DNA from: a virus
Strand: one strand, 5' to 3'
Length of the DNA: 64,000 bases
IMG/VR virus record: IMGVR_UViG_3300047095_000811
Span: 72,854 to 136,853 of that record
Shown here: positions 8,985 to 42,432 of the stretch, in pieces
Numbering within the stretch: position 1 is the stretch's first letter
How the letters are laid out: each line of letters starts with the position of its first letter
Notes under the pieces: generated by a model
What the model saw: only the letters and a program-made list of their open reading frames with translations
Database searches by the model: none
What the model was told of the DNA's origin: nothing
Program-made: the position numbers and the translations under genes

Positions 8985-9051
8985 GTTTGATTTCCTTGTG
9001 AACTTAAGGCGGGAGCCAATAGAGAAATTCTAAATTTCTGTTTGGCGAAAT

Positions 9052-11014: not shown

Positions 11015-11670
11015 TACTCTTCCTCAGTTACCTTTCTGGATGACGATGAACCCTTCCTCCTGCGTCCGGGCAGTGCTGCGGTGAGCATCATCAGGCTGTC
11101 GAAGTCCAGCTTCCGAAGCTTGTATTCGACGGCTCTGATGATTCTCAGCGGCAAGAAGACGAGTTCCTCTTTAGACCCGATGAAGATGTTGACGCCCTGT
11201 TGGACCTCTCCGGTCTTTGGGTCCTCGCTGACGGCAAAGGAGATCATGATCGCCTTGCCTTCTTCATTGGACACCTTCTCTTTGATCGACTTGAACTCTT
11301 CGTTCACGAAGCACTCGTATCCGTGATCGCTGTCTTCGACTTCGCCGAAGACTTCGTTGTCTCGCATCACGATCATGAAGTTCTTGAATGCTTCGCATAG
11401 GTCGACGATGGTCGTGCAAGAGAAAGCTATTTCGCTGCCCTTGACTTGTCTCTTCTTTTCCGGGTCGTAAGACTCGTATCCGAAGATCAAGTAAGAGCTG
11501 TAGTTGTATGTGTCGTACACGTTCCCGTTGTCGGAAGCGAACGAGTATGACGGCCCGAAGTCGGACGAGTCAGACTTGACTACAAACTTGAGCCGCAGGT
11601 TGGAGTACCGGAATAGTGGTACTGTTTTGGAGTGCCATGTCTTGTTTGATGCCATCGTAGTCCTTCCCAT
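11014..11670 (-). CDS. hypothetical protein
   Basis: 218-aa ORF in the helicase operon. Confidence 0.7.
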   Translation of the reverse strand: MGRTTMASNKTWHSKTVPLFRYSNLRLKFVVKSDSSDFGPSYSFASDNGNVYDTYNYSSYLIFGYESYDPEKKRQVKGSEIAFSCTTIVDLCEAFKNFMIVMRDNEVFGEVEDSDHGYECFVNEEFKSIKEKVSNEEGKAIMISFAVSEDPKTGEVQQGVNIFIGSKEELVFLPLRIIRAVEYKLRKLDFDSLMMLTAALPGRRRKGSSSSRKVTEEE

Positions 11671-11872
11671 TATTGCATTTGCCCGTAGCCAGATCCCAAG
11701 TCAGATTGGGAGCCGGGTCGTCTCCGGACACGTTGTAGCGATCGATGAAGCCGGTCAGCGTGTTGCCGACCGGATCATACGAAAGCGGGAAGATCTGCTC
11801 GCCTTCCTCTGTCTGGAAGGCGTACATCTCACGAGGAAGCCGGGGCTTACCGTCGCTATTCGTCATCTTCAT
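11570..11872 (-). CDS. hypothetical protein
   Basis: 100-aa ORF filling the gap after the helicase; overlaps the next gene by up to about 100 nt. Confidence 0.45.
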   Translation of the reverse strand: MKMTNSDGKPRLPREMYAFQTEEGEQIFPLSYDPVGNTLTGFIDRYNVSGDDPAPNLTWDLATGKCNNGKDYDGIKQDMALQNSTTIPVLQPAAQVCSQV

Positions 11873-13491: not shown

Positions 13492-14049
13492 CTACTCTGT
13501 CATGCTGTCGAAGTGGTCTTCAAGATCCTCTTGGTCGATGATTTTCTGATCAGCTTCTTCGGAGACTCCGACTACCTGGATCAGGTCGATCCCGTGGTCG
13601 AGAAGCATGTCGTGGGACATACCGTTCTTAAACTCTTCGATGTAGTAGATGCGCTTCACCTTCGCCCTGATGAGCCTTGCGGCGCATCGGGTGCAGGGCG
13701 AATGGGTGATGTAGAGGGTGGCTCCCTCCAGCGACCTTCCGATCTCTGCGGCTCTCTGAAGCACTTCGTCTTCTGCGTGGAGCGTGGAGTCTTTGGTCTT
13801 CCCGTTGAGGTCAACCGTGTAGGGGTCTCTGGAGTCCACGTTGTGGTTGAAGCCATACCCGAGAACGTTACCGTTCCGGTCCACTGCCACGGCTCCGACT
13901 TGCTTGTCAGGAGCCGGAGAGCGGGACGCGATCTGCATCGCAACGTTCAGCCACACGCGCAGTGCGCTCGAAGGCTTTCTGTACCGGACGATCGGAGGGG
14001 CTTCCTGCAGATCTTCGTTTTCTTCAATTACGTGGTAGTCGTTTTCCAC
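13492..14049 (-). CDS. dCMP deaminase
   Basis: Zinc motifs HAE and SPCTRC, plus QVGAV and GFN. Confidence 0.88.
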   Translation of the reverse strand: MENDYHVIEENEDLQEAPPIVRYRKPSSALRVWLNVAMQIASRSPAPDKQVGAVAVDRNGNVLGYGFNHNVDSRDPYTVDLNGKTKDSTLHAEDEVLQRAAEIGRSLEGATLYITHSPCTRCAARLIRAKVKRIYYIEEFKNGMSHDMLLDHGIDLIQVVGVSEEADQKIIDQEDLEDHFDSMTE

Positions 14050-14072: not shown

Positions 14073-15980
14073 TCAGTACAGGCCGTCGATGATGCTTTCT
14101 TCATCCTTGCTGAACATGTTGTTCTCCACAACGTAGTTCAGACGCTCGAAGGCGAGGGTGATCGCCGCCGATGGATGATTGACGAGCGCGTTGGTGAGTT
14201 TGAGGAACTTCAACTTCTCGGGGTTGTCAAAGTTCTTCGGGCGGTGTTGAATGTCGTCCACATCCCTGAGCAACTCGCGGAGGATCAGCTCGATGGTGAG
14301 GCTGCTGGCGCGGATGTTCGAACGTTCGAGAAGGCCGAGGAACTCAGGAAGGATGAGGTGATAATTGCCGGGGTCGGAAATCTTCACCTTCTTCTTGGGC
14401 TCCTCTTCAATCACTTCTTCGATGTTGAGACGGGCCTCGCTCTCCAGAAGGTGGATGATGTTCTTCAGGGGGGTGGAGAGCTCGCTGTTCTCGACGTTGA
14501 TCCGGAAGAGGTTCTCCTGACCGTCGTTCGAAACTTCGATGATGTTGTCTGCCTTGTACTTGGAAACCATGTCGGGGTTCTCAAGCACCACCAGCTCTTC
14601 TCCGTCGGCGAACTCGAACTCGACCTGACGGTCTCCGTCGAGCACCACCATGCGCTTGATGACCGTCTCCTCCTCATCGTTGACGATGATCTCGGTTACG
14701 TTCACCTTGAAGTGCTTCTTGCCGATCAGGTTGGAGCCGTCGATCTCGAAGTACTCGTACATCTTCTGAGGGAGCTTCACCTTCTCCGGGTTGATCTGGA
14801 GCAGGTGCTTCGAGGACAGCAGCATCTGGGTCAGCTGCTCGGTGAGGCTGAGCACGCTGCTGATGCCGATATGGAACGGGTTCACCTTCACCAGATCGCC
14901 GTAGCAGGTGTGGCATATGCCGTCTTCGGCGCAGCAGGTGATCGGAGTGCGGAGCCGGATCTTCTTGCCGACCATACTCTGGTCCCGACCGTCGATCTTG
15001 ACCAGCTTGCCCTTGACAGAGCGGTAGCGACCGTTGAGCCGCTTGAGCGCCGACTTGGACTCGATGACCATTTCGAGGTAGTTGTCGGACCCGCAGTCCT
15101 TGGTCTCAGACAGCTTCTGATTCAGCACCAGGAGCAGGAGCTTCCGCGACATGTAACCAGCGCGGCGCACTTGCAGCGAGTTGGTGATCAGCGCCTTGCG
15201 GGCACCCATCGCCGAGACGAAGTAGTCCATCTCGTTGCGGAACCCGTAGAAGAGGTTCGTGTCCACGCAGTGCGGGAAGATCGCAGATGAGGTCACCTCG
15301 GGCTTGTAGCCGACGTTGCAGAACACCTGCTGGAACTGTCCGATTGACACAGCCGACAGGAGGTTCTTGTAACAGTTGTACTCGTCATCCTTGATGATAG
15401 CTTCGAGCAGCTGGCGGTTTGCGTTCTTGACCTTCTCGTTGCCTTCGAAGTAGTCGACCTTGGAGCCGGTCTCCTCCCGCACCTTGGTCTTCAGCAGAGC
15501 TGCTACTTCCGGATTTCGCTGCATCATCTGCAGCATGTCGTAGATGTTGATGCTGTTGCCAGCGGACTGGTTGACCTCGAATGCCATGTCTGCCAGCTCT
15601 TCGAGGCAGCGGGCGATGATCGCCTTGAGACCAGTGAGGTCAGCGTCCTCGTCGGTCGCCATGCGGATGGTGTCCGTGAAGTACGAGGACACCATCTTCG
15701 CCGCATTGTCTTCTGCGGAACACAGAAGAAGATCGCCCTCGTCGAGATCCCGTTCCAGCACGTAGCGGGCCTTGATCGCGACGAGGGCGAGGACCAAGGC
15801 ACCGAACCGCTGGCTCAGTACCTTGCCCATGAACTTGAACTTCGTTTCCCGACGACGAATCGAGAAGTCGGCCTTCAGGAGAGCGATACACTCGTCCGTG
15901 AAGTTAATCGTCGCTTCCAGATCTTTCTGCTCGACGAAGTTCAGATTTAGAACTTTTTCCTTTTCGTTTTTTGCCACCAT
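14073..15980 (-). CDS. phage RNA polymerase beta-prime middle subunit (probably non-virion RNAP)
   Basis: Bridge helix ARKALI...AGYMSRKL, DCGS, Zn site RTPITC...ICHTCYG, trigger loop EQLTQMLLSSKH; in an operon with replication genes. Confidence 0.88.
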   Translation of the reverse strand: MVAKNEKEKVLNLNFVEQKDLEATINFTDECIALLKADFSIRRRETKFKFMGKVLSQRFGALVLALVAIKARYVLERDLDEGDLLLCSAEDNAAKMVSSYFTDTIRMATDEDADLTGLKAIIARCLEELADMAFEVNQSAGNSINIYDMLQMMQRNPEVAALLKTKVREETGSKVDYFEGNEKVKNANRQLLEAIIKDDEYNCYKNLLSAVSIGQFQQVFCNVGYKPEVTSSAIFPHCVDTNLFYGFRNEMDYFVSAMGARKALITNSLQVRRAGYMSRKLLLLVLNQKLSETKDCGSDNYLEMVIESKSALKRLNGRYRSVKGKLVKIDGRDQSMVGKKIRLRTPITCCAEDGICHTCYGDLVKVNPFHIGISSVLSLTEQLTQMLLSSKHLLQINPEKVKLPQKMYEYFEIDGSNLIGKKHFKVNVTEIIVNDEEETVIKRMVVLDGDRQVEFEFADGEELVVLENPDMVSKYKADNIIEVSNDGQENLFRINVENSELSTPLKNIIHLLESEARLNIEEVIEEEPKKKVKISDPGNYHLILPEFLGLLERSNIRASSLTIELILRELLRDVDDIQHRPKNFDNPEKLKFLKLTNALVNHPSAAITLAFERLNYVVENNMFSKDEESIIDGLY

Positions 15981-16107
15981 TTTTCCCCTTCTCGAACGAC
16001 AAATTGAACTTGAAACTGTGATGCTTGAGACTCAGGTTTAGTCTCTTGTCCGCCGCGTCGCCGAAGAGCGCGTTGGTAACGCCTGTGATTACTTCGCCTA
16101 TGATCAT
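15904..16107 (-). CDS. small basic protein with FKFNLSFEKG motif
   Basis: 67 aa; shares the motif with ORF 23052-23258; overlaps the RNAP start. Confidence 0.45.
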   Translation of the reverse strand: MIIGEVITGVTNALFGDAADKRLNLSLKHHSFKFNLSFEKGKNGGKKRKGKSSKSELRRAERSGSDD

Positions 16108-17610: not shown

Positions 17611-18552
17611 CTATGCCAGCTTGATGAGCAGGTCAATGATGGCCCGCGTCATAGCGATGGAACGGTGATTCCACTTGAGTCTCTCCGAGATCGACACGTC
17701 GCTTAGGGAGCAGAACTGCTCCTCGTCTTTAGACTTGCCGTTGACGAAGAAGATCGAATTATAGCCGAAATCTCGATGCAGCGCACGGAGACTTTCGCGG
17801 TCGTTGAGGGAAAAGCCATTCGGAACAACGACCTCTCCAAAGAGGGTTCCGATGCCTGACGCCGCGATCTTGCCGGACGGCTCGGCGATGGTCGCCACAG
17901 TCTGGAAGTACGCCGGAACCTCACCGTGCTTCCCGACCACGCTCATGACGCGAGTCAGCAGCATGACCTTGTTCAGGAAGTCCTTCGCGTCCTTGGTTTT
18001 CACCGACTCGGGCTTCCCTTCTTCCGAAAGGATCTCGTGGTAGATGATACCGGCATCCACGAAGCTCTCGGGGTTGTAACGACCGATGTTTCGGTCGAAG
18101 TACCGAGCGGAGTAGACACCCGGCTCGTCTCCAAGCAGCGGAACACAGATACCGGAGTCCTCTGCCATGACGTAGGACGACAAGTGTGCTGCGGTCTGGG
18201 TGCTCTTCAGGACGGAGTTCGCGTAGAGGGTGCTCCCCGTCTCGTCCACTTCCGGTAGCGGAACCTTCGGCACGTCGAACTCCAGCAGCCCGTCCAGCAG
18301 CTCCTTCAGATGACCGCTGTTCTCGATGAATCCCTTGAATTCGAGCACCTTCCCGTAGTTGCCGGTGGCGAACCAGATTCGAGGATCGCGCTTCAGGGTG
18401 ATTGGCAGGTAGTCGAGGATGCGTCCCTTGATCGGCAGCAGGTATGCCATCACGCTCTCGATCTCACTCCGGAAGGAGCTGTAGTTTTCTTGCTGGCGCA
18501 GAACCGTCGTGCGGTGCCCGTCCAGATCGATGAGGTCAATCACTTCTTCCAT
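17611..18552 (-). CDS. rdgB: non-canonical purine NTP pyrophosphatase (RdgB/HAM1/ITPase)
   Basis: FATGNYGK, ETGSTLYANSVLK, AEDSG...PGVYSARY, FGYNSIF and NHR motifs; start MEEVID at 18552. Confidence 0.88.
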   Translation of the reverse strand: MEEVIDLIDLDGHRTTVLRQQENYSSFRSEIESVMAYLLPIKGRILDYLPITLKRDPRIWFATGNYGKVLEFKGFIENSGHLKELLDGLLEFDVPKVPLPEVDETGSTLYANSVLKSTQTAAHLSSYVMAEDSGICVPLLGDEPGVYSARYFDRNIGRYNPESFVDAGIIYHEILSEEGKPESVKTKDAKDFLNKVMLLTRVMSVVGKHGEVPAYFQTVATIAEPSGKIAASGIGTLFGEVVVPNGFSLNDRESLRALHRDFGYNSIFFVNGKSKDEEQFCSLSDVSISERLKWNHRSIAMTRAIIDLLIKLA

Positions 18553-18836
18553 GCTTCTTCCTTTTGCTTCATTTGCCGTAGTGGCTAAATCGTACCATCG
18601 ATACGTTCCTTTCAGTTTTCCTCTCAGTCGCAGTTGTATTCGGGAATATCTCTTTAGCACATCCCGAGGGGGACTTTAGGGGGTGATAGAGTACGAGATC
18701 ATCTTTAAATAAATAATGATACCGTAACCCAGATCATCCTCTAGGAGCACTGATATGATATATGAGTAATAGTGGATTTGCTTTGTAACTACTCATTAAT
18801 CATGAAACACTTTCATTTTTCTAGGGGATAACCACC

Positions 18837-21800
18837 ATGATGGTTTCAATGGAAAAGATCATCCCGAACAAGATCTACTTCTCGTCTTCTCTCCAGATCA
18901 ATGTGGAAAAGGAAGGGAAGTACATCCTTACTTCGACGGATCCAGAGGATCCACAAAGACTGAAGTCCTTGACGGACTCCATGAAATTCGTGCCTCAAGG
19001 GAAGATGTACCTGTACTTCCCAGAGATGCTGCTGAACCCGGCGACTCTCGCTTCGATCAGCTCCACCAAGGAACGCAACGACTTCTTCAAGGACATCGCA
19101 GAGATCAACCTCGGCCATCAGGCCACCAAGGTCATGAAGCTCTCCGATCTCTCTCAGGAGCAGAAGAGTGACAACCATCCGCTGGTCGTCAACGTCGGCG
19201 GGTACTTCTCCAAGCTGGACTCGTACATCTCGGTCCACAAGAAGACCCCTCAGCAGAAGTACGCTTACCTCAAGCTCGTACTGAAGAAGATCCTGGCAGA
19301 CACCGCGAGGGACATCCCGGAAGGCAAGAAGACGCTGGTCGTGGACATCCAAGGTAACAGCCCGAGAATCGACCCGGTGCTGTTCACCATCGTATACGGC
19401 CTGAAGAAGGACTTCGAGGGGTGCTCCGGTATCTTCTCCGGAGTGGACGTGATCTTGGTCGATCCCGACCACAACCTCTTCGTCAAACTGAATCTGACCG
19501 ACCGCAAGAAAGCCATCCAGTCGGTGAACCTGTCTGCGAAGATGGCTGCTCTCAGCAAGTCGTTCGATCCCAAGAAGGTCATCACCGACAAGGACGTCCA
19601 AGTCGGCGACACTGTGGTATCAGACGACGCCGAAGTGATCGGATCCACCGAAGAGACCCCGATCGACAAGACCGGAGAGGTCACCAATCAGGAAGCTGCC
19701 AAGGCTTCCGAACAGACCAAGGAAGAAGCAGACCACACTGACGTGGACGGCGTATCCCGAGTCGAAGACCTCGATCTCAGCGAGATCATGGCGACCGACA
19801 CCTCTGCCGAGTTCGACCGGCTCGAAAAGGAGAACGCCGAGTTTGTGGCAAAGTTCAAGCCGCAGCAGGACAAAGCCTTCGGCGACGTCCAGAAGAGGGA
19901 AGAAGACTTCGTTCTCCATGTGGAATCGGCAAAGGACGACGCGGTACTCAACCCGAGCATCAAGACCGCCAAGACGGTGGCCCTGACCAACTCCTACCAC
20001 AAGAACCTCTTCAGGAAGGATGTTGCCTCCCTCCTCCAGTCCCTCAATAACGACTCAGAATTCCCTGCCGTCGTGATCTCGCACGAGATGAAGGACTCTT
20101 CGGACCCGCTGAACCTGAAGGACGAGCTTTCCGTCGTCTTCATGGACAAGCAGGGTAAGAAGCACAACTTCACTGTTGACGTTCCCAAACTGTCCTCCGA
20201 CGGCTTCCTGTACATCAACGGCAATAAAAAGTTCATCGCCAAGCAGACGACGCTTTTGCCGCTCATCAAGGAAGCTCCCGACCGAGTCCAGATCACCACG
20301 TCGTACTCGAAGACCTTCTTGTACCGCAAGGGCGACAAGACTAACCCGATGATCGACAGGATCTTTAAGACTCTCATCGGTAAGTCGTACACCGGGGTGA
20401 AGCCCATGTACGGCAATTCCTTCGCGTCCAACATCAAGTACGGCGTCAGTATCCCCTACAACTACCTCTCGAAGCGTCTCTTCACGCTCAGCTTCGATCT
20501 GGGAGCGAAGGCTTCTCTGGACTTCCACTTCAGCCAGAAGCGGATCCGTTCGGTGATGGAGGATGCCGGGATGTCGATCCCGGAAGGGAAGCTGCCGGTT
20601 GCACTGCGGATGATGAACGGCAAGATTGATGCGGTCTACTTCGAGGATGCGTCCACCAGAAAGGTGGAGCAGGTCAGCGGCAAGACGGTCATGAAGACCT
20701 ATCAGAACCTGCAGGACCTGCTCGTCGAGACGATCAGGAACTACAAGAACACCGACGTCCTGAAGGCTTTCGAGGCCACCAATGCAGGCAAGGCGTACAG
20801 CTACACCGACATCAAGCTCGCCGGGACCAGCGTCCCTCTGGGCATCCTCGTCAGCTTCTACCAAGGTCTGCTTCCAGCTCTCGACGGGTACGGCATCAAG
20901 TACACCGTCTCCGCTGAGAAGCGCCGTGCTGCAGAGAACGAGACTCTCATCCAGTTCAAGGACATGAATGTGTACCTGAATCTGGAAGGGGATACTGCTA
21001 AGGAGCTCTTTGCCAACGGTCTGTACTTCCTGAATACCAAGGAGTTCTCCTACCGGGACGCTGAGCGTCGTGGGTCTGTGTTCATCGAGTACTTCGGAGA
21101 GGCAATCGGATCCCGCAACATCGCCAAGGCATACATCAACTTCGAGACCTCGATGATCGACCCGATCACGAAGGAGATCCTCATCGATCTGAAACTGCCA
21201 ACGGAGTTCGTCCCTCTGCTTTACAAGGCGAACGACATGCTGGCGGGGTACTCCCACAAGCGCAAGAACGACATGACGAACTTCCGGGTCAGAGACTCTG
21301 AGGTGCTGTCCGTGGCGATCTACGACGTACTCATGAAGTCCTTCAACGAGTACAAGCGCACCGTGAAGACCGGCGTGGTGACTCCGATCTCTGCGCCGAA
21401 GGACGCCGTGGTCAAGAAGGTGCAGGCTCTCCCGAACGTGGAGGACTATTCGGTTCTGTCTCCGTTCCTCGAAATGGAGCTGAAGTCCAAGACGACATTC
21501 AAAGGTCCGTCCGGCCTCAACAGCTCCGACGCCTACACCGCCGAGATTCGTTCTTACGATCCGTCGATGATCGGCCTGTTCGGCATCTTCTCCCCGGTCT
21601 CCGGGGAGATCGGCGTCAACCGCTCTCTGGTGCTGAACCCGAAGATCCGAAACAACCGTGGGTACCTCGACCATCCGGACGTGGACTCGATGAACATGGA
21701 CAACCTGTTCGCCTCCGGCGAGCTGCTGAACCTGTTCTCCGCGAACCACTCCGACCCGATGCGTACCGGCATGGCTACCACTCAGGGCAAGCACATCGTC

Positions 21801-22952
21801 TCGACGAAGGTGCAGCACAACTACCTGATCGGTACCGGTCTCGACAAGACCATCTCCCAGCTCATCGGGCAAGATTTTGCCTGGAAGGCGGCGGAGGACG
21901 GCGAGATCGTCAAGATCGACCAGCGGAACAAGCTCGTCTTCGTGAAGTACAAGACCGGGCAGACTACCGCGATCGACGTCAGCGACAAGCCCGCCAAGAA
22001 CTCTTCTTCCGGCTTCTGGATCAAGAACAAGCTCGAACTCATCGATGGCCTGAAGGTCGGCTCCAAGTTCAAAAAGGGTCAGACCCTAGCTACTAACCGC
22101 AGCTTCTTCCGGCAGGACATGGACGGATCCCACGGATTTGCCCCCGGAAGGCTCACGAAAGTGGCGATGATGTGCCTCCCAACCACTTACGAAGACTCCG
22201 CCCCTGTCATCGAAAAAGTGGCAAAGGAGATGGCTTCCGACATCATCACCGAGAAGCAGGTGGCGCTGAAAGAGAACTCCAAGATCATCAAGATCGCCAG
22301 CGAAGGCCAGAAGCTCAACGTCAACGACCCCCTCATCATCTTCGAGGAGATCGGCGACAGCGAGAAGGATGCCCTGAGCGCGATCGAGAAGGCGGCTAAA
22401 GCTGCCGAGGGAGACGAGGACTTGGAGCACCTCGGAAGAAACATCATCAAGTCGAAGTACTCCGGTACGATCACCAACGTCAAAGTCTACTACAACTGCG
22501 ACTTGGAGTCCGACGCGATCCACCCGACTCTGAAGGAGTACGTCAAGGGGTACATCTCCAAGGTGAAGTCCCGCTCCGACGCTCTGAAGGGTAACAAGGA
22601 GGACGACCTGATCGAGATGCCGTCCATCGAGCGCATCGACTCTGACAAGATCCTCGGCAACGAGATGTCTGGCGTCCTGATCGTGTTCTACATCGCACAC
22701 GAGGAGAAGATGGACGTTGGCAACAAGCTGGCATTCTTCTCAGCCTGTAAAGGGATCGTCTCGGAAGTCATTCCTGACGACTTGGCTCCTCTGACGGAGT
22801 ACCGAGAGGAAGAGCCTATCGAGGCGGTCGTCTCTCCGATGTCTTTGATCTCTCGTAACACTCCTGACCTTCCGCTCATGGGGTTCTCCAACAAGGTGAT
22901 CCTTGAGCTGAAGAAGCAGTGTATCGAAGAGCTCTTCGGCGACAAGAAGTAA
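18837..22952 (+). CDS. phage RNA polymerase beta subunit (probably virion RNAP)
   Basis: Beta motifs GFLYING, GEIGVNRSL, HSDPMRTGMATTQGKH, YEDS, GNKLAFFSACKGIV, VVSPMSLISR; late-type motif upstream. Confidence 0.9.
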   Translation: MMVSMEKIIPNKIYFSSSLQINVEKEGKYILTSTDPEDPQRLKSLTDSMKFVPQGKMYLYFPEMLLNPATLASISSTKERNDFFKDIAEINLGHQATKVMKLSDLSQEQKSDNHPLVVNVGGYFSKLDSYISVHKKTPQQKYAYLKLVLKKILADTARDIPEGKKTLVVDIQGNSPRIDPVLFTIVYGLKKDFEGCSGIFSGVDVILVDPDHNLFVKLNLTDRKKAIQSVNLSAKMAALSKSFDPKKVITDKDVQVGDTVVSDDAEVIGSTEETPIDKTGEVTNQEAAKASEQTKEEADHTDVDGVSRVEDLDLSEIMATDTSAEFDRLEKENAEFVAKFKPQQDKAFGDVQKREEDFVLHVESAKDDAVLNPSIKTAKTVALTNSYHKNLFRKDVASLLQSLNNDSEFPAVVISHEMKDSSDPLNLKDELSVVFMDKQGKKHNFTVDVPKLSSDGFLYINGNKKFIAKQTTLLPLIKEAPDRVQITTSYSKTFLYRKGDKTNPMIDRIFKTLIGKSYTGVKPMYGNSFASNIKYGVSIPYNYLSKRLFTLSFDLGAKASLDFHFSQKRIRSVMEDAGMSIPEGKLPVALRMMNGKIDAVYFEDASTRKVEQVSGKTVMKTYQNLQDLLVETIRNYKNTDVLKAFEATNAGKAYSYTDIKLAGTSVPLGILVSFYQGLLPALDGYGIKYTVSAEKRRAAENETLIQFKDMNVYLNLEGDTAKELFANGLYFLNTKEFSYRDAERRGSVFIEYFGEAIGSRNIAKAYINFETSMIDPITKEILIDLKLPTEFVPLLYKANDMLAGYSHKRKNDMTNFRVRDSEVLSVAIYDVLMKSFNEYKRTVKTGVVTPISAPKDAVVKKVQALPNVEDYSVLSPFLEMELKSKTTFKGPSGLNSSDAYTAEIRSYDPSMIGLFGIFSPVSGEIGVNRSLVLNPKIRNNRGYLDHPDVDSMNMDNLFASGELLNLFSANHSDPMRTGMATTQGKHIVSTKVQHNYLIGTGLDKTISQLIGQDFAWKAAEDGEIVKIDQRNKLVFVKYKTGQTTAIDVSDKPAKNSSSGFWIKNKLELIDGLKVGSKFKKGQTLATNRSFFRQDMDGSHGFAPGRLTKVAMMCLPTTYEDSAPVIEKVAKEMASDIITEKQVALKENSKIIKIASEGQKLNVNDPLIIFEEIGDSEKDALSAIEKAAKAAEGDEDLEHLGRNIIKSKYSGTITNVKVYYNCDLESDAIHPTLKEYVKGYISKVKSRSDALKGNKEDDLIEMPSIERIDSDKILGNEMSGVLIVFYIAHEEKMDVGNKLAFFSACKGIVSEVIPDDLAPLTEYREEEPIEAVVSPMSLISRNTPDLPLMGFSNKVILELKKQCIEELFGDKK

Positions 22953-22956
22953 CGAG

Positions 22957-23000
22957 GTGTGGGTAATGGTCGAAATGACCATTACCCACATCACATTTTT
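22957..23000 (+). terminator. intrinsic terminator
   Basis: TGTGGGTAATGGTC-gaaat-GACCATTACCCACA followed by T-runs. Confidence 0.8.
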
Positions 23001-23051
23001 CATTTTTAGTACTCCTGACTGCCACAACTCAGTGATAGAAAGGAGTCCACG

Positions 23052-23258
23052 ATGAACAGAAACAACATGCTCAAGGCGATGATGCTGACCGCGCTAGTGG
23101 TCAGAAGAAACCAAGCAGAGGACGATCTCTGCCAAGCAGTCGCCGGTACCAGAATCCAAATCGGAGGAAACAAAAGACAAGTTTCCGACGGCAACACATT
23201 CAAGTTCAATCTTCCTTTCGAGAAGGGAAGAAGGACGCCGAAATGCAAGAAAAATTAA
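23052..23258 (+). CDS. small basic protein with FKFNLPFEKG motif
   Basis: 68 aa, strong RBS AAGGAG, AACT-N6-TA motif at 23026-23037, terminator hairpin at 23263-23292. Confidence 0.7.
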   Translation: MNRNNMLKAMMLTALVVRRNQAEDDLCQAVAGTRIQIGGNKRQVSDGNTFKFNLPFEKGRRTPKCKKN

Positions 23259-23262
23259 TGAT

Positions 23263-23407
23263 AACCCCTACTGCCACATAGCAGTAGGGGTCTTTCATCG
23301 TTTCGAGGTTATCACACTTCCGGACGCTAATCTTGTCCTTACCAGTTCGGGGTCCACCTAGCATATCGGTTGCTAGTGCTACTACCTCCACCTGAATTGT
23401 GCCTCAG
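23263..23407 (-). ncRNA. candidate late small RNA, about 140 nt
   Basis: AACA-tatcta-TA at 23408-23419, internal hairpins CTAGCA/TGCTAG and GGAC/GTCC enclosed by GAGGT/ACCTC, ends at the terminator hairpin; no credible ORF. Confidence 0.4.
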
Positions 23408-23417
23408 TATAGATATG

Positions 23418-23966
23418 TTAGTATTTTCGGCTGTCGTAAGCCCACTGTAGCAGGGCCTGACGCTGTACGGGACGGCAAGTGGCATCCCCTTTCTTGCAGT
23501 TCTTGGTGAGCTGCGCCTTGTGCCTCACAAAAGACTTCCAGCGGGCGCACTGTTTTGCATCGACCTTCTCGTCGCGGCGTCCCATGTACGCCCGACAATA
23601 CCACTGGAACCATCCGCGAGGGTCGTCGCCCACGATCCACCCTTGCTTCCTCCAGTGCGACAGCGGCTTTCTGGATTTCACCTTGAAGTAGTTCAGCTCA
23701 GGATCAGCATCTCCGCCATCCTTCACCACCTTGGCACCACTGAACCAAGAAGAGGGGAACTCTCCGTGGCAATCGTTGAGGTACTTACCTTCGAAGACAC
23801 CGAGAGCCAGCATCTCTTTTGGAGTCAGCTCAGGGTCGAAGCCATATTTCTCCTTCAAGTCAGAGAGGTCGCCTTCCTTGACAGTCAGCTCATAAGAGTA
23901 ACCCTTCTGCATCTTGTCGCTAACCTTGACGGTCTTTCGTTTACCTTCAAGAAGAATGAATTTCAT
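23418..23966 (-). CDS. conserved hypothetical protein (DPRGWFQWYCR family)
   Basis: Motifs TPKEMLALGVFEGKY, DPRGWFQWYCRAYMGRR, RQALLQWAYD. Confidence 0.75.
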   Translation of the reverse strand: MKFILLEGKRKTVKVSDKMQKGYSYELTVKEGDLSDLKEKYGFDPELTPKEMLALGVFEGKYLNDCHGEFPSSWFSGAKVVKDGGDADPELNYFKVKSRKPLSHWRKQGWIVGDDPRGWFQWYCRAYMGRRDEKVDAKQCARWKSFVRHKAQLTKNCKKGDATCRPVQRQALLQWAYDSRKY

Positions 23967-24029
23967 GTTTTCCCCAAGAAAAAAGTACACACTAAGGAAA
24001 AGTTAGAGGGGCGCAGAGGCCCCTCCTCC

Positions 24030-24695
24030 TTACTTCCGATGACGGAAGGAAACCCGCTTGTCGAAGCCGTGCTGCACCAGCCGGTCTGTATCCGAGATCT
24101 TCACAGGCGGGTCCATGTCCGGAGACGGATAGATCACGTTGCCCATGAAGTAAGAAATCTCTTGGTACAGAGAGTTCTGATCGATGATCTTAGAGACCCC
24201 GAGCTCCGACAAGACAGGCATCTTGTTAGAGATTCGGAATTGAGTCTTCCGGTTCCCGTAATTGACTTGGATGCTACTCACCCGAAAGATGGGCTGCTTC
24301 AAGATACGGCTGAGTTCAACCAGCATTGGATGCGTCCCTCCGTCGAAGAAGCGCATGTCGAGCTCTCTCAGAAAGTACTTGGATCTTACGAATCTGATCG
24401 ACTCGTCAGTAGTGAGTACTCTCACTTCGTCTGGAAGACCGGAGCCGAACTCGGCCTGCTTGATCTTCATGAGATGAGGCTTCCCGCAGATCGACAGCAG
24501 CTCGGTCCGAGTCCTCGAATGGAAGTCGCTGTGGGTCGAGAGGGGGAAGTTTCCGTTCATCTCAATTTGGATGTCGCGATAGTCCGGTTCCTCCAGCTTG
24601 ATGAGCGCCGGTCGTTCGTAGACCACCTTCGGGTCGATCCCGTAGACGTTCGAAATGTGGTCGTAGTAGTCTCTGAATTTGGAGATGATTCTCAT
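24030..24695 (-). CDS. hypothetical protein
   Basis: 221 aa, begins MRIISKFRDYYD and ends HGFDKRVSFR. Confidence 0.75.
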   Translation of the reverse strand: MRIISKFRDYYDHISNVYGIDPKVVYERPALIKLEEPDYRDIQIEMNGNFPLSTHSDFHSRTRTELLSICGKPHLMKIKQAEFGSGLPDEVRVLTTDESIRFVRSKYFLRELDMRFFDGGTHPMLVELSRILKQPIFRVSSIQVNYGNRKTQFRISNKMPVLSELGVSKIIDQNSLYQEISYFMGNVIYPSPDMDPPVKISDTDRLVQHGFDKRVSFRHRK

Positions 24696-24934
24696 TGCTT
24701 CTTCCTCACAATCTTGTAGTCGTTCGGAGCGTACTTGTTGTACAGCTCATCGGCTTCCTCTTGTCCGACCAGCGCAGTGTACTTCTTCATCAAACCGCTG
24801 ATCTTGTCTGCGTGAGCTTGACCTCGACGCCATGTGCCGCCGTCATCGCTGTAGTTGTAGTACCAGTCATGCCGAGACAGGCTCTCTTCGAGTTCTTTCC
24901 TGACCAGCAGGACATCATCTTTCTCGTTGCTCAT
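24692..24934 (-). CDS. hypothetical protein
   Basis: 80 aa with HDWYYNYSDD motif; RBS before ATG 24934. Confidence 0.7.
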   Translation of the reverse strand: MSNEKDDVLLVRKELEESLSRHDWYYNYSDDGGTWRRGQAHADKISGLMKKYTALVGQEEADELYNKYAPNDYKIVRKKQ

Positions 24935-25340
24935 TTCTCTTCCTTTCAACATAGGACTTTAGGACTCCGTCCGTCGGTTCAAAGTCCATCTTTCCCTCTA
25001 CGAAAATCCGGTACGACTCTAGGGCATACCAGCCGATTCCATGCATCTTGCTCAGTTCGTCTATGCTTGACGGCGGATTGGCTACCCACTCCGCAGCTAG
25101 GCGGATTATCATTTTCGATCGCCGGTTCATCAATCCTAGCGACCTGATCGTCTCCACCATCTTCGGCAGGTCTTCTTCCTTCACACATTTGGGAGTAGGC
25201 CAATGTCGGAAGAACTCATCTACTACGCTCTTTACCTGCTCACCAGTGGTCCTGTTCAACAGGATGCTACTGATGACTACCCGCCAAGCATCGCCGTGAT
25301 AACTCTCTTGAACTAACTTGTATTCGGTATTGCGTCGCAT
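24915..25340 (-). CDS. MBD4-like HhH-GPD mismatch DNA glycosylase
   Basis: LVQE..DAW..ISSILLNRTTG, LGL..RR, HGIGWYALESYRIF and P-T-D (catalytic Asp position) parallel the MBD4 glycosylase domain. Confidence 0.85.
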   Translation of the reverse strand: MRRNTEYKLVQESYHGDAWRVVISSILLNRTTGEQVKSVVDEFFRHWPTPKCVKEEDLPKMVETIRSLGLMNRRSKMIIRLAAEWVANPPSSIDELSKMHGIGWYALESYRIFVEGKMDFEPTDGVLKSYVERKRNEQRER

Positions 25341-25453
25341 GGTTGTCCTCCTTACCATATGACACCGCATCTCTCGGCGTTATCCTTCCGCCACGCTAAT
25401 GATATATCAAGAAAAAAAGATTCGAGCGAACTCGAATCTTTTCTCCTGCATCC

Positions 25454-25591
25454 TTACCACTGGAACCACCACTGGCAGAAAGAGTATGTAAATGCCGAGA
25501 AGGTGACAATGGAAACACCGATCGTCATGCGGGTGTTGAAACGTTCGGTTTCAGCCTCGCGACGGGGGCTGTAAGAGTAGTGGACGTTCAT
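25454..25591 (-). CDS. 45-aa single-TM peptide (not in the ORF track)
   Basis: MNVHYSYSPRREAETERFNTRMTIGVSIVTFSAFTYSFCQWWFQW; GGAG RBS, AGATATAAT motif upstream, hairpin plus T-run downstream. Confidence 0.6.
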   Translation of the reverse strand: MNVHYSYSPRREAETERFNTRMTIGVSIVTFSAFTYSFCQWWFQW

Positions 25592-25694
25592 TTCGGTTCT
25601 CCAATTAGAAGGTTGATATCACAAGAATTATATCTGCCGGACTGGGTTGCAGATACGGGAACACAGAAATAGCTAACTTACAAGGAGAGCTGTA

Positions 25695-26054
25695 ATGGAA
25701 AAAATCATCATTCTTCTCATGCAATCTCGTACCCTTGTCCACACGTACCACCTGAAGGCGAAGAATCTTGCTCCTCATCTGGCACTCGACGAGCTGTACA
25801 ACGCGCTGACCGACCACATCGACGATCTCACCGAAGTGTATCAGGGCTTCGCGGAGCGTCTGCTCGATCTGAATTCCTATCCGGGTTTCACCGTAGACGA
25901 CGACCCTCTCGGCCAAGTGAGAGAGATCGCCAGTGCCATCGAATCGATGAGAAACCAAATCACCCCCAACTGTTCGACGATCCAGAACATGATCGACGAA
26001 GCACTTCAGACTCTGTACAAGACCAAGTACAAGCTGATGTTCCTGCCGATCTAA
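25695..26054 (+). CDS. ferritin/Dps-like four-helix protein
   Basis: HTYHL...HLALDELY...HIDDLTE metal-ligand pattern; late promoter motif at 25660-25671. Confidence 0.7.
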   Translation: MEKIIILLMQSRTLVHTYHLKAKNLAPHLALDELYNALTDHIDDLTEVYQGFAERLLDLNSYPGFTVDDDPLGQVREIASAIESMRNQITPNCSTIQNMIDEALQTLYKTKYKLMFLPI

Positions 26055-26092
26055 GAAAAAAAAAGAACCCTACCGCGATGGTAGGGTTCTTT
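26055..26092. terminator. bidirectional terminator
   Basis: A-run, GAACCCTACC-gcgat-GGTAGGGTTC, T-run, between convergent genes. Confidence 0.8.
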
Positions 26093-26107
26093 CACGCTCT
26101 ATAGGAG

Positions 26108-26446
26108 CTACGACGCCGCAAGCGCCTGTCGGTCGTTCTTGAGAACTTCCCGGAGCGCATTGGCGATGTCGGTCGGGCTGACTTGTTGGGCGGGGCGCGG
26201 TTCTTGAGTCTGCTCCCAAGGCATTCCACGAGTCAGATCCTCGTAAACCTTGTTGATGCCAGTCTCATTGACGAAAGCATACGCTTCGTCGACCGAATTA
26301 AATTGTCGCGGTTCCACCGTCCCATCTTCCTTCTTCATCTTTACCACCGTCCAGGTTGCGAAAACCACGAAGTGATTCTTCATGAATTCGATTACCCAGT
26401 GACCGTTTTGATGGTCGAAGGTGATGCGGAAAGCGCGATTCTTCAT
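26108..26446 (-). CDS. hypothetical protein
   Basis: 112 aa, AAGGAG RBS, ATATATAAT motif upstream. Confidence 0.7.
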   Translation of the reverse strand: MKNRAFRITFDHQNGHWVIEFMKNHFVVFATWTVVKMKKEDGTVEPRQFNSVDEAYAFVNETGINKVYEDLTRGMPWEQTQEPRPAQQVSPTDIANALREVLKNDRQALAAS

Positions 26447-26567
26447 TTGAAACTCCTTGCAAAGATACGGTAATCCGGATGGCTACCACGAAAATTATAT
26501 ATCACTGTTGGGAGCTTACTTCCGGTACGGCAACAACACCTTAGACCTCATAATAAAAGGAAGAACC

Positions 26568-27119
26568 ATGCATAAAGAGCGGACGTTCTCCGAGACTTCA
26601 CTTGAGCTAGCCGACGAGCTCATGAAAGAGCTCGGAGTCAAAGACAAGGACGTGCGGCTCATCGATCAGGCGATTGATGAGTGGCAGAACGAGAAGAACT
26701 ACACGAAGATATCCCTGACATACTACGGAGAGCCGAAGGCTCAGGCCCGTCCGAGGTCTTCCAGTCAGCACGGCGGGTTCTTCTATGATCCGAGTAAGAG
26801 CCTCAAGCAATGGGTGCTCTCTCAGATCGTGGCGCAGCTCCCGCCCAATTTCAAGCCCATCGATCGATCCATCGAGGTCACGCTGCGCTTCTACCGGACT
26901 ATGCCAAAGGGCGGATCCAAGAAGGACAAGATCCTGATGGAGCTCGGAGTCATCCAGCCTTGCGGTCGTCCCGACATCGACAACTTCATCAAACTCGTTC
27001 AAGACGCGCTGAACAAGACGCTGTATACGGACGACTCCAACATAGTCACGCTGTACGCCGAGAAGTTCTATTCCTGCAAGCCCAGAGTGGAACTTGACAT
27101 CAAATTCCGTAAAGCCTAA
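26568..27119 (+). CDS. rusA: RusA-family Holliday junction resolvase
   Basis: PKAQARPR and PDIDNFIKLVQDALN..LYTDDSNIV catalytic motif. Confidence 0.88.
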   Translation: MHKERTFSETSLELADELMKELGVKDKDVRLIDQAIDEWQNEKNYTKISLTYYGEPKAQARPRSSSQHGGFFYDPSKSLKQWVLSQIVAQLPPNFKPIDRSIEVTLRFYRTMPKGGSKKDKILMELGVIQPCGRPDIDNFIKLVQDALNKTLYTDDSNIVTLYAEKFYSCKPRVELDIKFRKA

Positions 27120-30794: not shown

Positions 30795-31166
30795 ATGATA
30801 CCAATAATGAAGCCGCTTACAGTGATATCGATGGATATCGAAAGGGAAGAGTCCCCGATCACCTTCATCGACCACTTCGCGTCTGTCGGCGGGTTGCAGC
30901 CTGTCTACTCTCGATCTTCTACGACGACGATGAAAATCGTGACTCCTTCCTTAGACGATCCGTCCGTTTACCATGCCGATTTTTTCGTTGTGGCGAACCC
31001 TCGCCTCCAAAGGCACCCAGTCAGTCTCGGAAACCCGACCAGCGAGCACGACGAGAAGGTGCAACAACTCAATACTTTCCTGGAGATTCTTCAATTCGCT
31101 AGGACAAACCCAGTTGCAAGAGAGAAGTTGGAGGACCTGTTCAAGCTCCGACAGCTTCTCGGATGA
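30795..31166 (+). CDS. hypothetical protein
   Basis: 123 aa; ATATATTAT at 30759-30767; first gene of the sbcD-dnaB operon. Confidence 0.7.
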   Translation: MIPIMKPLTVISMDIEREESPITFIDHFASVGGLQPVYSRSSTTTMKIVTPSLDDPSVYHADFFVVANPRLQRHPVSLGNPTSEHDEKVQQLNTFLEILQFARTNPVAREKLEDLFKLRQLLG

Positions 31167-31178
31167 TTCGAGGAAAAT

Positions 31179-32330
31179 ATGTCAACTTTCATCTCTATCT
31201 CAGACGTCCATCACGGCGCAAAGTCCCACGAGAGCATGCGGGAAGAGTTCTACGCCGAGGGTGGATTCTTCGACGTTCTCGATGCCACCCTACCGGAAGA
31301 AGATTTCATCGGGGTGGCCGTTACCGGGGACTGGTTCGACAAGAAACTGGACATGAACGACCCGAGAGCAAAGCTCGGAGTCTCCGTCATGGTGGATATC
31401 CTGAACCGCTGCATCCAGTACGACAAGCACCTCGTCGTGATCCGTGGAACCTACTCCCACGACCTCAACCAGCTGAATGTGTTTGAGGAGTTCGGCGCTC
31501 TCTACGAGAAGTTCCACCTCGTCAACACGGTGCGAGAGATCAAGTTCGGTCCTCTGAGAACTCTCTGCATCCCGGAGGAGTACCCGCAAGACAGCGACGA
31601 GTACTACGCCGACTGGTTCTCCAAGAAATACGATCTGATACTCGGCCACGGCTTCTTCGATTTCAACTGCTTCGACAGCAACGACGCCGAGCGCAACATC
31701 CCGCAGATGCCGGTATTCGAGGCAGACGTGATCTGCAAGCTGGCACCGCTCACGATCTTCGGCCACGATCATACCCACAAGGACTACAAGAACAAGATCT
31801 TCTACAACGGATCTTTCTCTCGGCTCTGCCACAATGAAGAGACTCCCAAGGGGTTCATCTACGCAGAGTGGGACAGGAAGAACCCGTCAGTACACCTCAT
31901 GGAGAACGCGCTTGCTCCGAGGTACATCACCGTCGTACTCGACGTCATCGTGAAGCGAGCAAAGATTGACGTCAACTTCGAGGAACTGGTGAAGCTCATC
32001 GAACGCACCAAGGTAAAAGCAAACGCATACGACCTGAAAGTGAAGGTCACGGACTACTTCACCAAAGAGCACAAGGTCACCGTCGAGCTGGTCAAGAACC
32101 ACTTCTTGAACCAGCCTGGGTATCGGATAGAATCCGGTCGGCTGAACGTCCTGAGAGATTCGGAAAACGTGATAGAAGACTCCGACGAAGGAGAGGGTGA
32201 TACTACGTATGACTTCCTCTTCGAGCCCACCAATATTGTCGACAAGGTTCTCAAGTTCATCGAAGTGAAGCACGAGGGGCAGTACAACCTGACGCGGGAC
32301 CAAGTGGCTCAGTCGATTTCACCCGTCTAA
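31179..32330 (+). CDS. sbcD: SbcD/Mre11-like metallophosphoesterase nuclease
   Basis: Motifs SDVH, GDWFD, GTYSHD, GH, FGHDH, YNGS. Confidence 0.88.
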   Translation: MSTFISISDVHHGAKSHESMREEFYAEGGFFDVLDATLPEEDFIGVAVTGDWFDKKLDMNDPRAKLGVSVMVDILNRCIQYDKHLVVIRGTYSHDLNQLNVFEEFGALYEKFHLVNTVREIKFGPLRTLCIPEEYPQDSDEYYADWFSKKYDLILGHGFFDFNCFDSNDAERNIPQMPVFEADVICKLAPLTIFGHDHTHKDYKNKIFYNGSFSRLCHNEETPKGFIYAEWDRKNPSVHLMENALAPRYITVVLDVIVKRAKIDVNFEELVKLIERTKVKANAYDLKVKVTDYFTKEHKVTVELVKNHFLNQPGYRIESGRLNVLRDSENVIEDSDEGEGDTTYDFLFEPTNIVDKVLKFIEVKHEGQYNLTRDQVAQSISPV

Positions 32331-32346
32331 GGACGAAAGGAGTGCA

Positions 32347-34002
32347 ATGAAAAAAAGAGAAAGAAGCGGAAGCAAGAAAGCCTCCAACCGGGTAAAGATG
32401 GAGCTGAAGACGTCGCTGATGAAGAATCTGCTGGCGTACCTGCTCGGAGAGACCAAGTCGAGGAACTTCGTCAAGAAGCTCAACATCTTCTTCCAGCTAG
32501 TCGACGAGACGGTGTATCTCAGCGATGCAGATATGGAGATGCCGTACGCTGCAGTGCGACGCGTTCTGAAGACGATCCTCGAAGACAACGTAGACGACCA
32601 AGAACTCATCATGGACCGTCTGCTCTCGATGCCGAAGTACGAGGAAGAGATGCCTGACCTGATCGAGGAGATTAGCGGCATCGACATGAACGAGGACCTC
32701 GTCGTTTATATCGAGAACGAGTTCATTGACCGTCTCAACTACGTCACTGCTATCCCGGTCATATCTCAGCTCAAGCTGGCGATATCTCAGTTTGACAAGC
32801 AGGAGTATGAGTCCTATAACGAGATCATCCAAGAGATCCGTGGCTATACCTCCATCTTCAACAAGGCGGTGAACCTTCGTTCGTCGGCTTCTCTGACTTA
32901 TCCAGAGATCGACTTCAACAGTGAGCAGTTCGAAGTTATTCTCGAAAAGGTCTACAAAAACCTCACGAACGAGAAGAAGTACTTGATGACAGGAGTCAAG
33001 GAGCTAAACAAGATGCTGCAGGGCGGCTTCCAACCCGGTCGCGTCTACGTGTTCATGGCTGTGTCTGGCGGTTGGAAGTCTGGCCTGCTGCTGAACGCGT
33101 TCATTTGGGCTGCGCGGTACAACCGGAACCTCCGGTGCAGGGATCAGGCCAAGAAGCCGATGTTCCTCTATCTGACGCAGGAGAACGATTCCGAAGAGAC
33201 GCTCGACCGCATGTTCAGCTACATGAACTGTGTCAAAGACAGCAAGTACACCCCGCTCGACCAGATCAAGGAGGCGTTCATCGAAGAGGGGATCGTGGAC
33301 CCCGGACACCACGGCTTCAAGATCCACTACTTTCGAAAGAACGAGATCTGCGCTAACGACATTGAGAACCTCGTCCACGACATCGAGGCCGACGGAGAGT
33401 ACGAGGTCAAGTTGATCGTTCACGATTACCTGAAGCGTCTGCGTCCGAACGTGGCAGCCAATGACATCCGGGTCGATCTCGGCTCCGCCACGAACGATCT
33501 GTCCGAATTGGCGAAGCTGCTGAAGATCCCGATCGTCACCGCCAACCAGCTCAACAAGGAGGCATACACCGTTCTCATGCAGCAGGGCAACAACGAGAAC
33601 AAGAATGACCTCGGCAAGAAGGCGTCCCTGACGATGCAATCGGAGTCTCAGCTCATCACCGAGAACGCCGACTGCGTCATTGCGATCAACAAGGAGTACC
33701 AGCGGGCCACCGACAAGTGGTTCCTGACCTTCACCGATCTCAAGAACCGGGCATCTAAGACCAACCGTTCGTACGCCAACAGGTACTTCGCAATACCCTT
33801 CGTAGAGGGGAACTCGATGCGCCTAATGGAAGATCTGAACACGGATGATAATTACGCCTTGCAATCCATCTCGGATGGTCTGGCGGATTTCGACCCGAAC
33901 GGCCACAACGACGACACCGAACCGGAAAACCGCCCCAAGACTCAGCGCAAGGGGCAGCACAAGAAGGTTCTGGCTGACGACGCATTTGAGGACGAAGACT
34001 GA
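32347..34002 (+). CDS. DnaB-like replicative helicase
   Basis: TGVKELNKMLQGG, Walker A-like SGGWKS, VHDYL, TANQLN, KNR motifs. Confidence 0.88.
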   Translation: MKKRERSGSKKASNRVKMELKTSLMKNLLAYLLGETKSRNFVKKLNIFFQLVDETVYLSDADMEMPYAAVRRVLKTILEDNVDDQELIMDRLLSMPKYEEEMPDLIEEISGIDMNEDLVVYIENEFIDRLNYVTAIPVISQLKLAISQFDKQEYESYNEIIQEIRGYTSIFNKAVNLRSSASLTYPEIDFNSEQFEVILEKVYKNLTNEKKYLMTGVKELNKMLQGGFQPGRVYVFMAVSGGWKSGLLLNAFIWAARYNRNLRCRDQAKKPMFLYLTQENDSEETLDRMFSYMNCVKDSKYTPLDQIKEAFIEEGIVDPGHHGFKIHYFRKNEICANDIENLVHDIEADGEYEVKLIVHDYLKRLRPNVAANDIRVDLGSATNDLSELAKLLKIPIVTANQLNKEAYTVLMQQGNNENKNDLGKKASLTMQSESQLITENADCVIAINKEYQRATDKWFLTFTDLKNRASKTNRSYANRYFAIPFVEGNSMRLMEDLNTDDNYALQSISDGLADFDPNGHNDDTEPENRPKTQRKGQHKKVLADDAFEDED

Positions 34003-42396: not shown

Positions 42397-42432
42397 TATT
42401 TCAATGTTCTTTGAGAATTTAACAGGTAGATA
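42397..42432. promoter_or_regulatory. back-to-back late promoter motifs (AACA-N6-TA on both strands)
   Basis: Minus strand AACA-ttgaaa-TA (42397-42408) and plus strand AACA-ggtaga-TA (42421-42432). Confidence 0.75.

Follow-up and report, generated by a model that had tools for sequence, protein, structure and literature searches.

A stand-alone MBD4-type DNA glycosylase in a GC-rich relative of the uracil-DNA phage phiR1-37: a candidate for U:G-specific repair

Phages with uracil-containing DNA (U-DNA) face a paradox: uracil excision must be disabled, but with it switched off, deaminated cytosine goes unseen and causes mutations. In phiR1-37, two enzymes have been characterised experimentally, the dCTP-specific deaminase g103 (Dcd, G4KK42) and the dTTP pyrophosphatase g100 (Dtt, G4KK39), which are described as together accounting for the deoxyuridine (dU) in the DNA of this phage (PMC12697855). 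In AR9, the non-virion RNA polymerase (nvRNAP) is reported to read its promoter in the template strand as 3'-UUGU-5', rejecting T and requiring U at positions -11 and -10 (PMC5449584), and the side chain of Val206 in gp226 to clash with the thymine methyl group (PMC9209446). Mismatched uracil, for its part, is a substrate of MBD4, which according to its structural description excises T, U and 5-fluorouracil chiefly when they face G and leaves single strands untouched (PMC3479182). The MBD4 pocket is described there as made of residues 447-449, 560-562, Leu466, Gly471 and Tyr540, with Gln449 essential and Asp560 catalytic; Arg468 occupies the gap vacated by the flipped base, and the main-chain carbonyls of Arg468 and Leu506 contact N1 and N2 of the orphan guanine (PMC3479182). 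Here, a stand-alone gene of the MBD4 type is described on a 64,000-nt stretch of viral DNA (hereafter the window), which is the final 64 kb of the 136,853-bp contig IMGVR_UViG_3300047095_000811 from IMG/VR (positions 72,854 to 136,853; contig GC 55.0%). We put the probability that its product serves a uracil genome by repairing U:G specifically at roughly 50%. Window coordinates of the features are collected in Table 1.

The open reading frame (ORF) of the glycosylase extends from 25370 down to 24915 on the minus strand (151 aa), and the 141-aa form starting at the ATG at 25340 is the likely gene because AAGGAGG precedes this codon and the public gene call (P0001) has the same 141 aa. The initial annotation had described the protein as a stand-alone relative of the MBD4 glycosylase domain, which was confirmed. 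The Pfam scan gave HhH-GPD (PF00730) alone (1.3e-8, 35.6 bits against a cut-off of 26.2), and the best 15 matches of the PDB sequence search were all MBD4 glycosylase domains (E 5.7e-16 to 1.1e-14), followed by the archaeal G-T mismatch enzyme 1KEA (E 1.9e-5). An AlphaFold model built on 24 homologues reached a pLDDT of 92.0 and a pTM of 0.83; in a Foldseek search with this model, ranks 1-16 were all occupied by MBD4 (TM 0.75-0.87, root-mean-square deviation 1.6-2.1 Å). The HhH-GPD fold of the protein spans about 140 residues and lacks a [4Fe-4S] cluster domain; a single Cys is present in the 141 aa. A methyl-CpG-binding domain was not found within this length. Judged by its domain content, the phage protein is thus a member of the catalytic-domain family and not an MBD4 orthologue in architecture.

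For the active site, residue correspondence was counted along the human chain in the PDB alignment, with phage numbering following the 151-aa ORF. Identical residues were found for the LVQ stretch 447-449 (L19-V20-Q21), Leu466 (L38), Arg468 (R40), Gly471 (G43), Leu506 (L78), Tyr540 (Y115) and Asp560, the Asp of 'PEDH' (D134). The catalytic D134 was invariant in 24/24 aligned homologues, and the aligned catalytic and recognition residues were also kept in P0002, a homologue with 78% identity. The contacts to the orphan G are made by the main chain, and the conserved R40 and L78 therefore cannot prove G specificity by sequence.

The genomic setting of the glycosylase points to the lineage in which the dU pathway was described. 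The order of genes in the window (deaminase, RNA polymerase (RNAP) beta', 16299-17345, Ham1-type protein, virion RNAP (vRNAP) beta) mirrors g103-g099 of phiR1-37. The deaminase, already named in the initial annotation, is a real gene on the minus strand, and the plus frame of the same interval had no Pfam match. It is 34% identical to g103 (E 3e-20), and its HAE and PCxxC zinc motifs are visible. A homologue of the second enzyme of the phiR1-37 dU pathway had been missed in the initial annotation: the Ham1-type protein matches g100 over 267 residues with 31% identity (E 2e-20; Pfam Ham1p_like 5.6e-22) and shares 39 invariant columns across the alignment of four homologues. Among 50,697 phage records, a long Ham1/Dtt match was given by phiR1-37 only, and a Dtt activity of the window protein is presumed from this homology. 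Outside the window, homologues were found of g207 (genome positions 30836-33427, 36% identity, E 0) and g196 (37932-40646, 31%, 7e-128), both listed in Table 3 of PMC10303552 among proteins exclusive to U-DNA phages.

According to CheckV, the contig is about 52% complete, so that about half of the genome is covered, and results for the contig are to be read with this scope. A complete close relative was sought because the other half is missing, and a search for gp226 homologues returned G006, an IMG/VR contig of 263,413 bp with terminal repeats (100% complete, 55.2% GC). The comparison also included phiR1-37 (32.5% GC) and G001, a complete 249-kb IMG/VR genome (35.3% GC). Among 760 simple ORFs of the contig (>=50 aa, shadow frames included), 72 matched phiR1-37 and/or G001, and the proteins matching phiR1-37 were about 25-48% identical. 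The best match of beta' was phiR1-37 (33% identity, 8e-95), followed by the Staphylococcus S6-like phages and AR9/PBS1. G006 is the closest relative found: it keeps the order Dcd, beta', Dtt and vRNAP beta, and its identity to the contig is 76% for the major capsid protein, 61% for Dcd and 37% for Dtt, with a median of 46% over 144 ORF matches. By gene content and order, the phage belongs to the phiR1-37/AR9 lineage, of which it reveals a GC-rich branch. IMG/VR searches with single-protein queries or a small alignment returned no close relatives of the glycosylase or beta'. As an observation in its own right, IMG/VR holds further loci of an AR9/phiR1-37-type branch with 50-56% GC (L066-L072), among which G006 stands as the complete member. 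The gp226 valine was kept in 15/15 IMG/VR homologues, G006 included; the GC-rich contigs carrying it have 56.0%, 54.5% (two), 54.7%, 54.8% and 50-51% (two) GC.

Thymidylate synthase and dUTPase had been named beforehand as the genes whose presence should speak against uracil DNA. Searches for ThyA, ThyX and dUTPase gave no match at E<=1 in the contig, phiR1-37 and G001, and the complete G006 had neither a ThyA nor a dUTPase match. A ThyX match in G006 scored 13.4 bits against a cut-off of 24.8 and was rejected as a shadow frame because its GC content at third codon positions (GC3) was 0.58 versus 0.83 for the ORF on the opposite strand. Uracil-DNA glycosylase (UDG) and C5 methyltransferase genes were likewise not found in the contig. 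The earlier proposal that a phage with uracil DNA brings along a U:G glycosylase therefore gains considerable comparative support from the synteny with phiR1-37, the Dcd and Dtt homologues and the lack of ThyA, ThyX and dUTPase; under this proposal, the virion DNA would probably contain dU and the enzyme would probably be specific for U opposite G.

The glycosylase also appears to be under the control of the phage transcription system. Its upstream region contains ATATATCAT at 25407-25399, followed by six bases and a G at 25392, which fits the promoters annotated in phiR1-37 and the early (virion RNAP) consensus given for AR9, AAATATATATTAT-(6N)-G (PMC5312081). The predicted transcript start at G 25392 would leave a leader of 52 nt. 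Scans were made with ATATAT[ACT]AT-N6-G as the early and AACA-N6-TA as the late motif, and the backgrounds came from 100 shuffles. The early motif occurred 6 times in the window versus 0.04 expected (0/100 shuffles reached 6) and 18 times in the whole contig, where 13 of the 18 sites were intergenic in the gene set used here and 16 had G at +1.

The late motif was found 21 times in the window versus 9.05 +/- 2.99 expected, a number reached by none of the 100 shuffles, and the CACA and TACA control motifs were not enriched. Within 150 nt upstream of the 132 called genes, 26 late motifs were in sense and 9 in antisense orientation, and the density was 1.31 per kb upstream of genes versus 0.15 per kb genome-wide. 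In 31 ortholog triples, the motif lay <=120 nt upstream in 12 cases for the contig, 14 for phiR1-37 and 16 for G001. It stands 20-65 nt upstream of many late/structural genes, with further examples at window positions 395-406(-), 9031-9042(-) and 52337-52348(+). The AR9 transcriptome paper states that no late-promoter consensus was found for phiR1-37 (PMC5312081); the present analysis yields one for the phiR1-37 group, as the motif becomes visible because the background is GC-rich. Thus, of the AR9-like promoters in the initial annotation, the early and late types were substantiated, and its GACA variant was not: GACA-N6-TA occurred 16 times versus 14.98 +/- 3.79 expected, 47/100 shuffles reached 16, and overall it was not above chance, with a weak positional bias upstream of genes (sense 7 versus antisense 2) and few well-placed examples.

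Active-site conservation and early expression bear on the question whether the enzyme serves repair at all. It might instead attack host or competitor DNA (for example, by excising thymine), act in counter-defence or be an inactive remnant. Glycosylases are known as antiviral weapons, early expression would also suit a host takeover, and pocket positions 561-562 differ from those of MBD4. However, all residues for mismatch recognition and catalysis are kept, reading of the orphan G through main-chain contacts would give no route to normal T:A pairs, and their retention in P0002 fits conservation of the gene. A role outside repair is for these reasons considered very unlikely.

From sequence, fold and gene order we infer the following course of U:G repair, every step of which goes beyond these observations. 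Early after infection, the virion RNAP would transcribe the Dtt and glycosylase genes. Dtt and Dcd would replace dTTP by dUTP in the nucleotide pool, with dT most likely replaced by dU, and replication would therefore yield U:A pairs. A general uracil glycosylase would destroy such a genome, and general uracil excision would have to stay off. Cytosine deaminated spontaneously or enzymatically would give U:G, in which the lesion differs from the legitimate U by its partner base only. The 141-aa protein, presumably an active monofunctional enzyme, would flip out U (probably also T) only when it is opposite G: the loop of the Arg finger would sense the orphan G, the U would enter the Gln/Tyr pocket, and Asp would cleave the bond. 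Base-excision repair would in this way be started at U:G and spare U:A, and the host apurinic/apyrimidinic (AP) endonuclease, polymerase and ligase would complete it. This repair might limit the drift from C to U(T), which would matter more at 55% GC. It is possible, although we hold it with somewhat less than even confidence, that GC-rich U-DNA jumbo phages form a clade and that this clade recruited a partner-base-reading MBD4-type glycosylase, which restored deamination repair in cells where general uracil excision has to be blocked and let a U-genome stay GC-rich. If true, the U-DNA paradox would find a simple and testable answer in a uracil glycosylase that is specific for the partner base; a small enzyme possibly able to tell U:G from U:A could also help in handling dU-containing DNA.

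The distribution of the family permits another view of the gene. Within the lineage, G006 encodes an MBD4-type glycosylase of 156 aa. It is 34% identical to the contig enzyme (E 4e-17) and has QVG in place of the GIG hairpin, and its gene lies at a different locus (about 200 kb). In phiR1-37 and G001, both complete and AT-rich, no homologue was found at E<=1, and the recovered parts of seven fragmentary relatives (4-37% complete) contained none. The family is large, with 2224 representative clusters at E<=1e-3, 743 at E<=1e-10 and 3 at E<=1e-30, and contains both stand-alone members of about 125-170 aa and long proteins bearing the domain C-terminally. Among cultured phages, 16 records matched (Xanthomonas 9, Stenotrophomonas 2, Janthinobacterium 2, Aeropyrum virus 2, cyanophage 1), and AR9, PBS1, the S6-like phages and phiR1-37 were not among them. 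A description of a phage MBD4-type glycosylase was not found in the full-text literature, subscription journals not being covered.

The gene could also be an ordinary accessory gene for G:T/G:U mismatch repair, of the kind that many large phages carry within replication and repair modules, either in a phage with T-DNA or in one where dU is irrelevant to its presence. The size of the family favors this, as do two metagenome homologues situated in replication/repair modules (L044 with DnaB, ATP-dependent ligase and Fpg/Nei; L050 with ribonucleotide reductase (RNR) and topoisomerase II). A general link of stand-alone MBD4-like genes with ThyA, Dcd or Dtt was sought and rejected, as no ThyA-, Dcd- or Dtt-like gene lay within +/-10 kb of the glycosylase in 20/20 metagenome loci. 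Moreover, the glycosylase lies in a variable island without counterpart in G006 (23.0-26.4 kb), and its GC3 of 0.585 (genome mean 0.753, standard deviation 0.069) suggests recent acquisition; because of both, the gene looks like a later acquisition, since then connected to an early promoter of the phage itself. This connection speaks against a merely accessory gene, and so does its presence in two GC-rich members of the lineage and absence from two complete AT-rich ones. In a dU genome, furthermore, any G-specific uracil glycosylase would necessarily act on deaminated cytosine. We regard the accessory role as unlikely, though one to be taken seriously. As separate observations, the glycosylase, ATP-dependent DNA ligase and Fpg/Nei genes of L044 lie within 3 kb (9971-13026) and may form a phage base-excision-repair cassette; the variable island of the window (23000-26450), situated between the conserved vRNAP beta and RusA genes, comprises orf190, orf221, orf86, the glycosylase, a DUF5856/Dps-like gene and orf112, and single homologues of island genes occur at other, dispersed positions in G001 and phiR1-37.

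The best matches among cultured phages lead to a further alternative, repair of T:G (or modified-U:G) arising from deaminated 5-methylcytosine (5mC) or another modified cytosine, as is likely in Xp12-like phages. These matches are of the Xp12 type (32-33% identity, E about 4e-16), including Xp12 gp61 and Donnerlittchen gp33 (Bradleyvirinae), both stand-alone and 32% identical over 87% of the query. Xp12 DNA is reported to carry 5mC (PMC7653180). In both phages, the homologue opens a cluster that continues with a hydrolase, a ThyA-like protein, a dCMP deaminase and dihydrofolate reductase (DHFR). These clusters (Xp12, L033 8917-11995; Donnerlittchen, L040 5917-8960), presumably for 5mC synthesis, have their first gene annotated as 'hypothetical protein' or 'endonuclease III', an observation of its own. 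However, no PF00303 match at E<=1 to the ThyA-like dCMP methyltransferase that accompanies the Xp12-type glycosylase was found in the contig, the neighbours of the window gene are unrelated to that cluster, and ThyA is also missing from G006, G001 and phiR1-37. The phage instead carries homologues of the dU-pathway pair Dcd and Dtt, and the Xp12 clade stands apart from the contig enzyme in the glycosylase tree. Repair of deaminated 5mC, which the initial annotation had offered as an alternative, is disfavoured by the lack of a ThyA-like gene and C5 methyltransferase in the contig, and we consider it highly improbable.

Against the preferred reading of U:G-specific repair, a number of points have to be set. 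The residues following the catalytic Asp in the pocket, His561-Lys562 in MBD4, are Gly-Val in the phage enzyme. Ordinary T-DNA phages often carry deaminases of the same family as the window protein (420 records), and the window deaminase is as near to the dCMP deaminases of Gordonia phages (37%) as to that of phiR1-37 (34%), so that its orthology to Dcd is argued by synteny only. The Dtt homologue, at 31% identity to the characterised enzyme, could differ in specificity. A gp226 homologue was not found in the contig, which covers about half of the genome. Scanning the called proteins against Pfam revealed neither an AP endonuclease nor a ligase, and repair would therefore depend on host enzymes as presumed partners. 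The nearest cultured-phage homologues belong to Xp12-like phages with 5mC, and the dU roseophage DSS3_VP1 (47.5% GC in the first 50 kb) is not among the 16 matching records. The suggestion made initially that the glycosylase could explain the high GC thus finds a correlation in its favor and this phage against it; the correlation, moreover, compares two with two genomes that are not phylogenetically independent, and an effect on GC is accordingly only conjectured. Finally, a quick tree, made to ask whether the contig and G006 enzymes were acquired independently and in which 94/158 inner branches are open, puts the enzymes of the contig and G006 in one weakly supported group of 27 rows, not as sisters.

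Table 1. Window coordinates of the glycosylase locus, the putative dU-pathway and RNAP genes, and associated signals
Feature	Position	Strand	Basis
MBD4-type HhH-GPD DNA glycosylase, stand-alone, 141 aa	24915..25340	-	ORF, Pfam, PDB, model, Foldseek
Shine-Dalgarno AAGGAGG, 6-nt spacer to ATG 25340	25347..25353	-	direct sequence reading
Early (virion RNAP) promoter, AR9/phiR1-37 type, ATATATCAT-N6-G	25392..25407	-	motif scan
Terminator-like hairpin GATTCGAG-TTCG-CTCGAATC, then T7, just upstream of the glycosylase promoter	25412..25438	-	direct reading
Cytidine/deoxycytidylate-family deaminase, syntenic homologue of phiR1-37 g103 (Dcd)	13492..14049	-	Pfam dCMP_cyt_deam_1 1.8e-20
Ham1-family NTP pyrophosphatase with N-terminal extension, syntenic homologue of phiR1-37 g100 (Dtt)	17611..18660	-	homology, Pfam
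Early-type promoter ahead of the Dtt gene, ATATATCAT-N6-G, predicted start 18748	18748..18763	-	
Multisubunit RNAP beta'-like subunit (phiR1-37 g102 homologue)	14073..15980	-	Pfam, homology
Virion RNAP beta-like subunit, 1371 aa (phiR1-37 g099 homologue)	18837..22952	+	40% identity, E 0
GACA-N6-TA, 59 nt upstream of the beta' gene, among the few well-placed examples	16039..16050	-	
Late AACA-N6-TA example, 34 nt upstream of the 2785-aa tape-measure gene	42421..42432	+	
orf190, 57% identical homologue in G001	23418..23990	-	
orf221, phrog_4243 (unknown function), 29% identical homologue in G001	24030..24695	-	
orf86, function unassigned, overlaps the glycosylase 3' end by 38 nt	24692..24952	-	no family found
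RusA resolvase, far edge of the variable island with the glycosylase	26457..27119	+	

PHROGs had no family for the glycosylase, orf86 or orf190, and the PDB sequence search and protein atlas returned no function for orf190 or orf221. The hairpin at 25412-25438 was not listed by the consensus scan, and no tRNA was found within the window.

Several other genes of the contig are recorded here in their own right. The tape-measure-like protein of 2785 aa (42466-50823, plus strand), a homologue of phiR1-37 g083, carries an SLT transglycosylase domain around residue 2400. At 54484-55752 on the minus strand, a protein of 422 aa is encoded whose N-terminal domain is Acb1 (anti-CBASS). Next to it and divergent from it, at 55823-56992 on the plus strand, lies the gene of a radical-SAM protein (389 aa), which has an early promoter to itself (start 55790); no match to the radical-SAM gene was seen in G006, G001 or phiR1-37. 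Outside the window, the contig contains a 488-aa GGDEF-EAL protein resembling phosphodiesterases of cyclic di-GMP (C1:23845-25311, minus strand), a class II RNR (NrdJ), an RtcB RNA ligase and NAMPT/NAPRTase-like genes. It also carries a divergent adenylosuccinate-synthetase-like gene of 397 aa (C1:1817-3010, minus strand), which falls below the curated PurA and PurZ cut-offs and has no homologue in phiR1-37 or G001. A PurZ-based 2-aminoadenine genome was rejected, as the protein scored 85.6 bits with E. coli PurA versus 38 with PhiVC8 PurZ-type chains, and 66.5 with the NCBIfam PurZ model versus a cut-off of 300.

Overall, the phage enzyme can be placed among known systems as follows. With the glycosylase domain of MBD4/MED1 (PDB 4DK9, 6VJW, 1NGN), it shares about 30% identity over about 125 residues, the same compact fold, and the same Gln, Tyr, catalytic Asp, Arg finger and orphan-G-contacting Leu. 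Unlike MBD4, it comes without a methyl-CpG-binding domain or long linker, and its gene is driven by a promoter of the phage RNAP type. The Mig enzyme of Methanothermobacter ('G-T mismatch repair enzyme', PDB 1KEA) is a prokaryotic mismatch-specific T/U glycosylase and in this respect resembles the proposed function; its sequence and fold match is weak (Foldseek rank 23). It has 221 residues, and the match is confined to residues 24-117. E. coli Mug is also a prokaryotic mismatch-specific T/U glycosylase and belongs to a different superfamily. The Xp12-type phages have genomes with wholesale pyrimidine replacement, as is probable for the present phage, and differ in that their modified base is 5mC and that their glycosylase heads the cluster with the ThyA-like, dCMP deaminase and DHFR genes and has T:G as its expected substrate. 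With phiR1-37, the phage shares the gene order at the RNAP genes, the homologues of Dcd, Dtt, g196 and g207, the early promoter type and the lack of ThyA, ThyX and dUTPase. It differs in GC content (32.5% in phiR1-37 versus 55.0%) and in the MBD4-type glycosylase, which phiR1-37 does not have. Of the two, dU is proven in phiR1-37 only and is a probable feature of the present phage.

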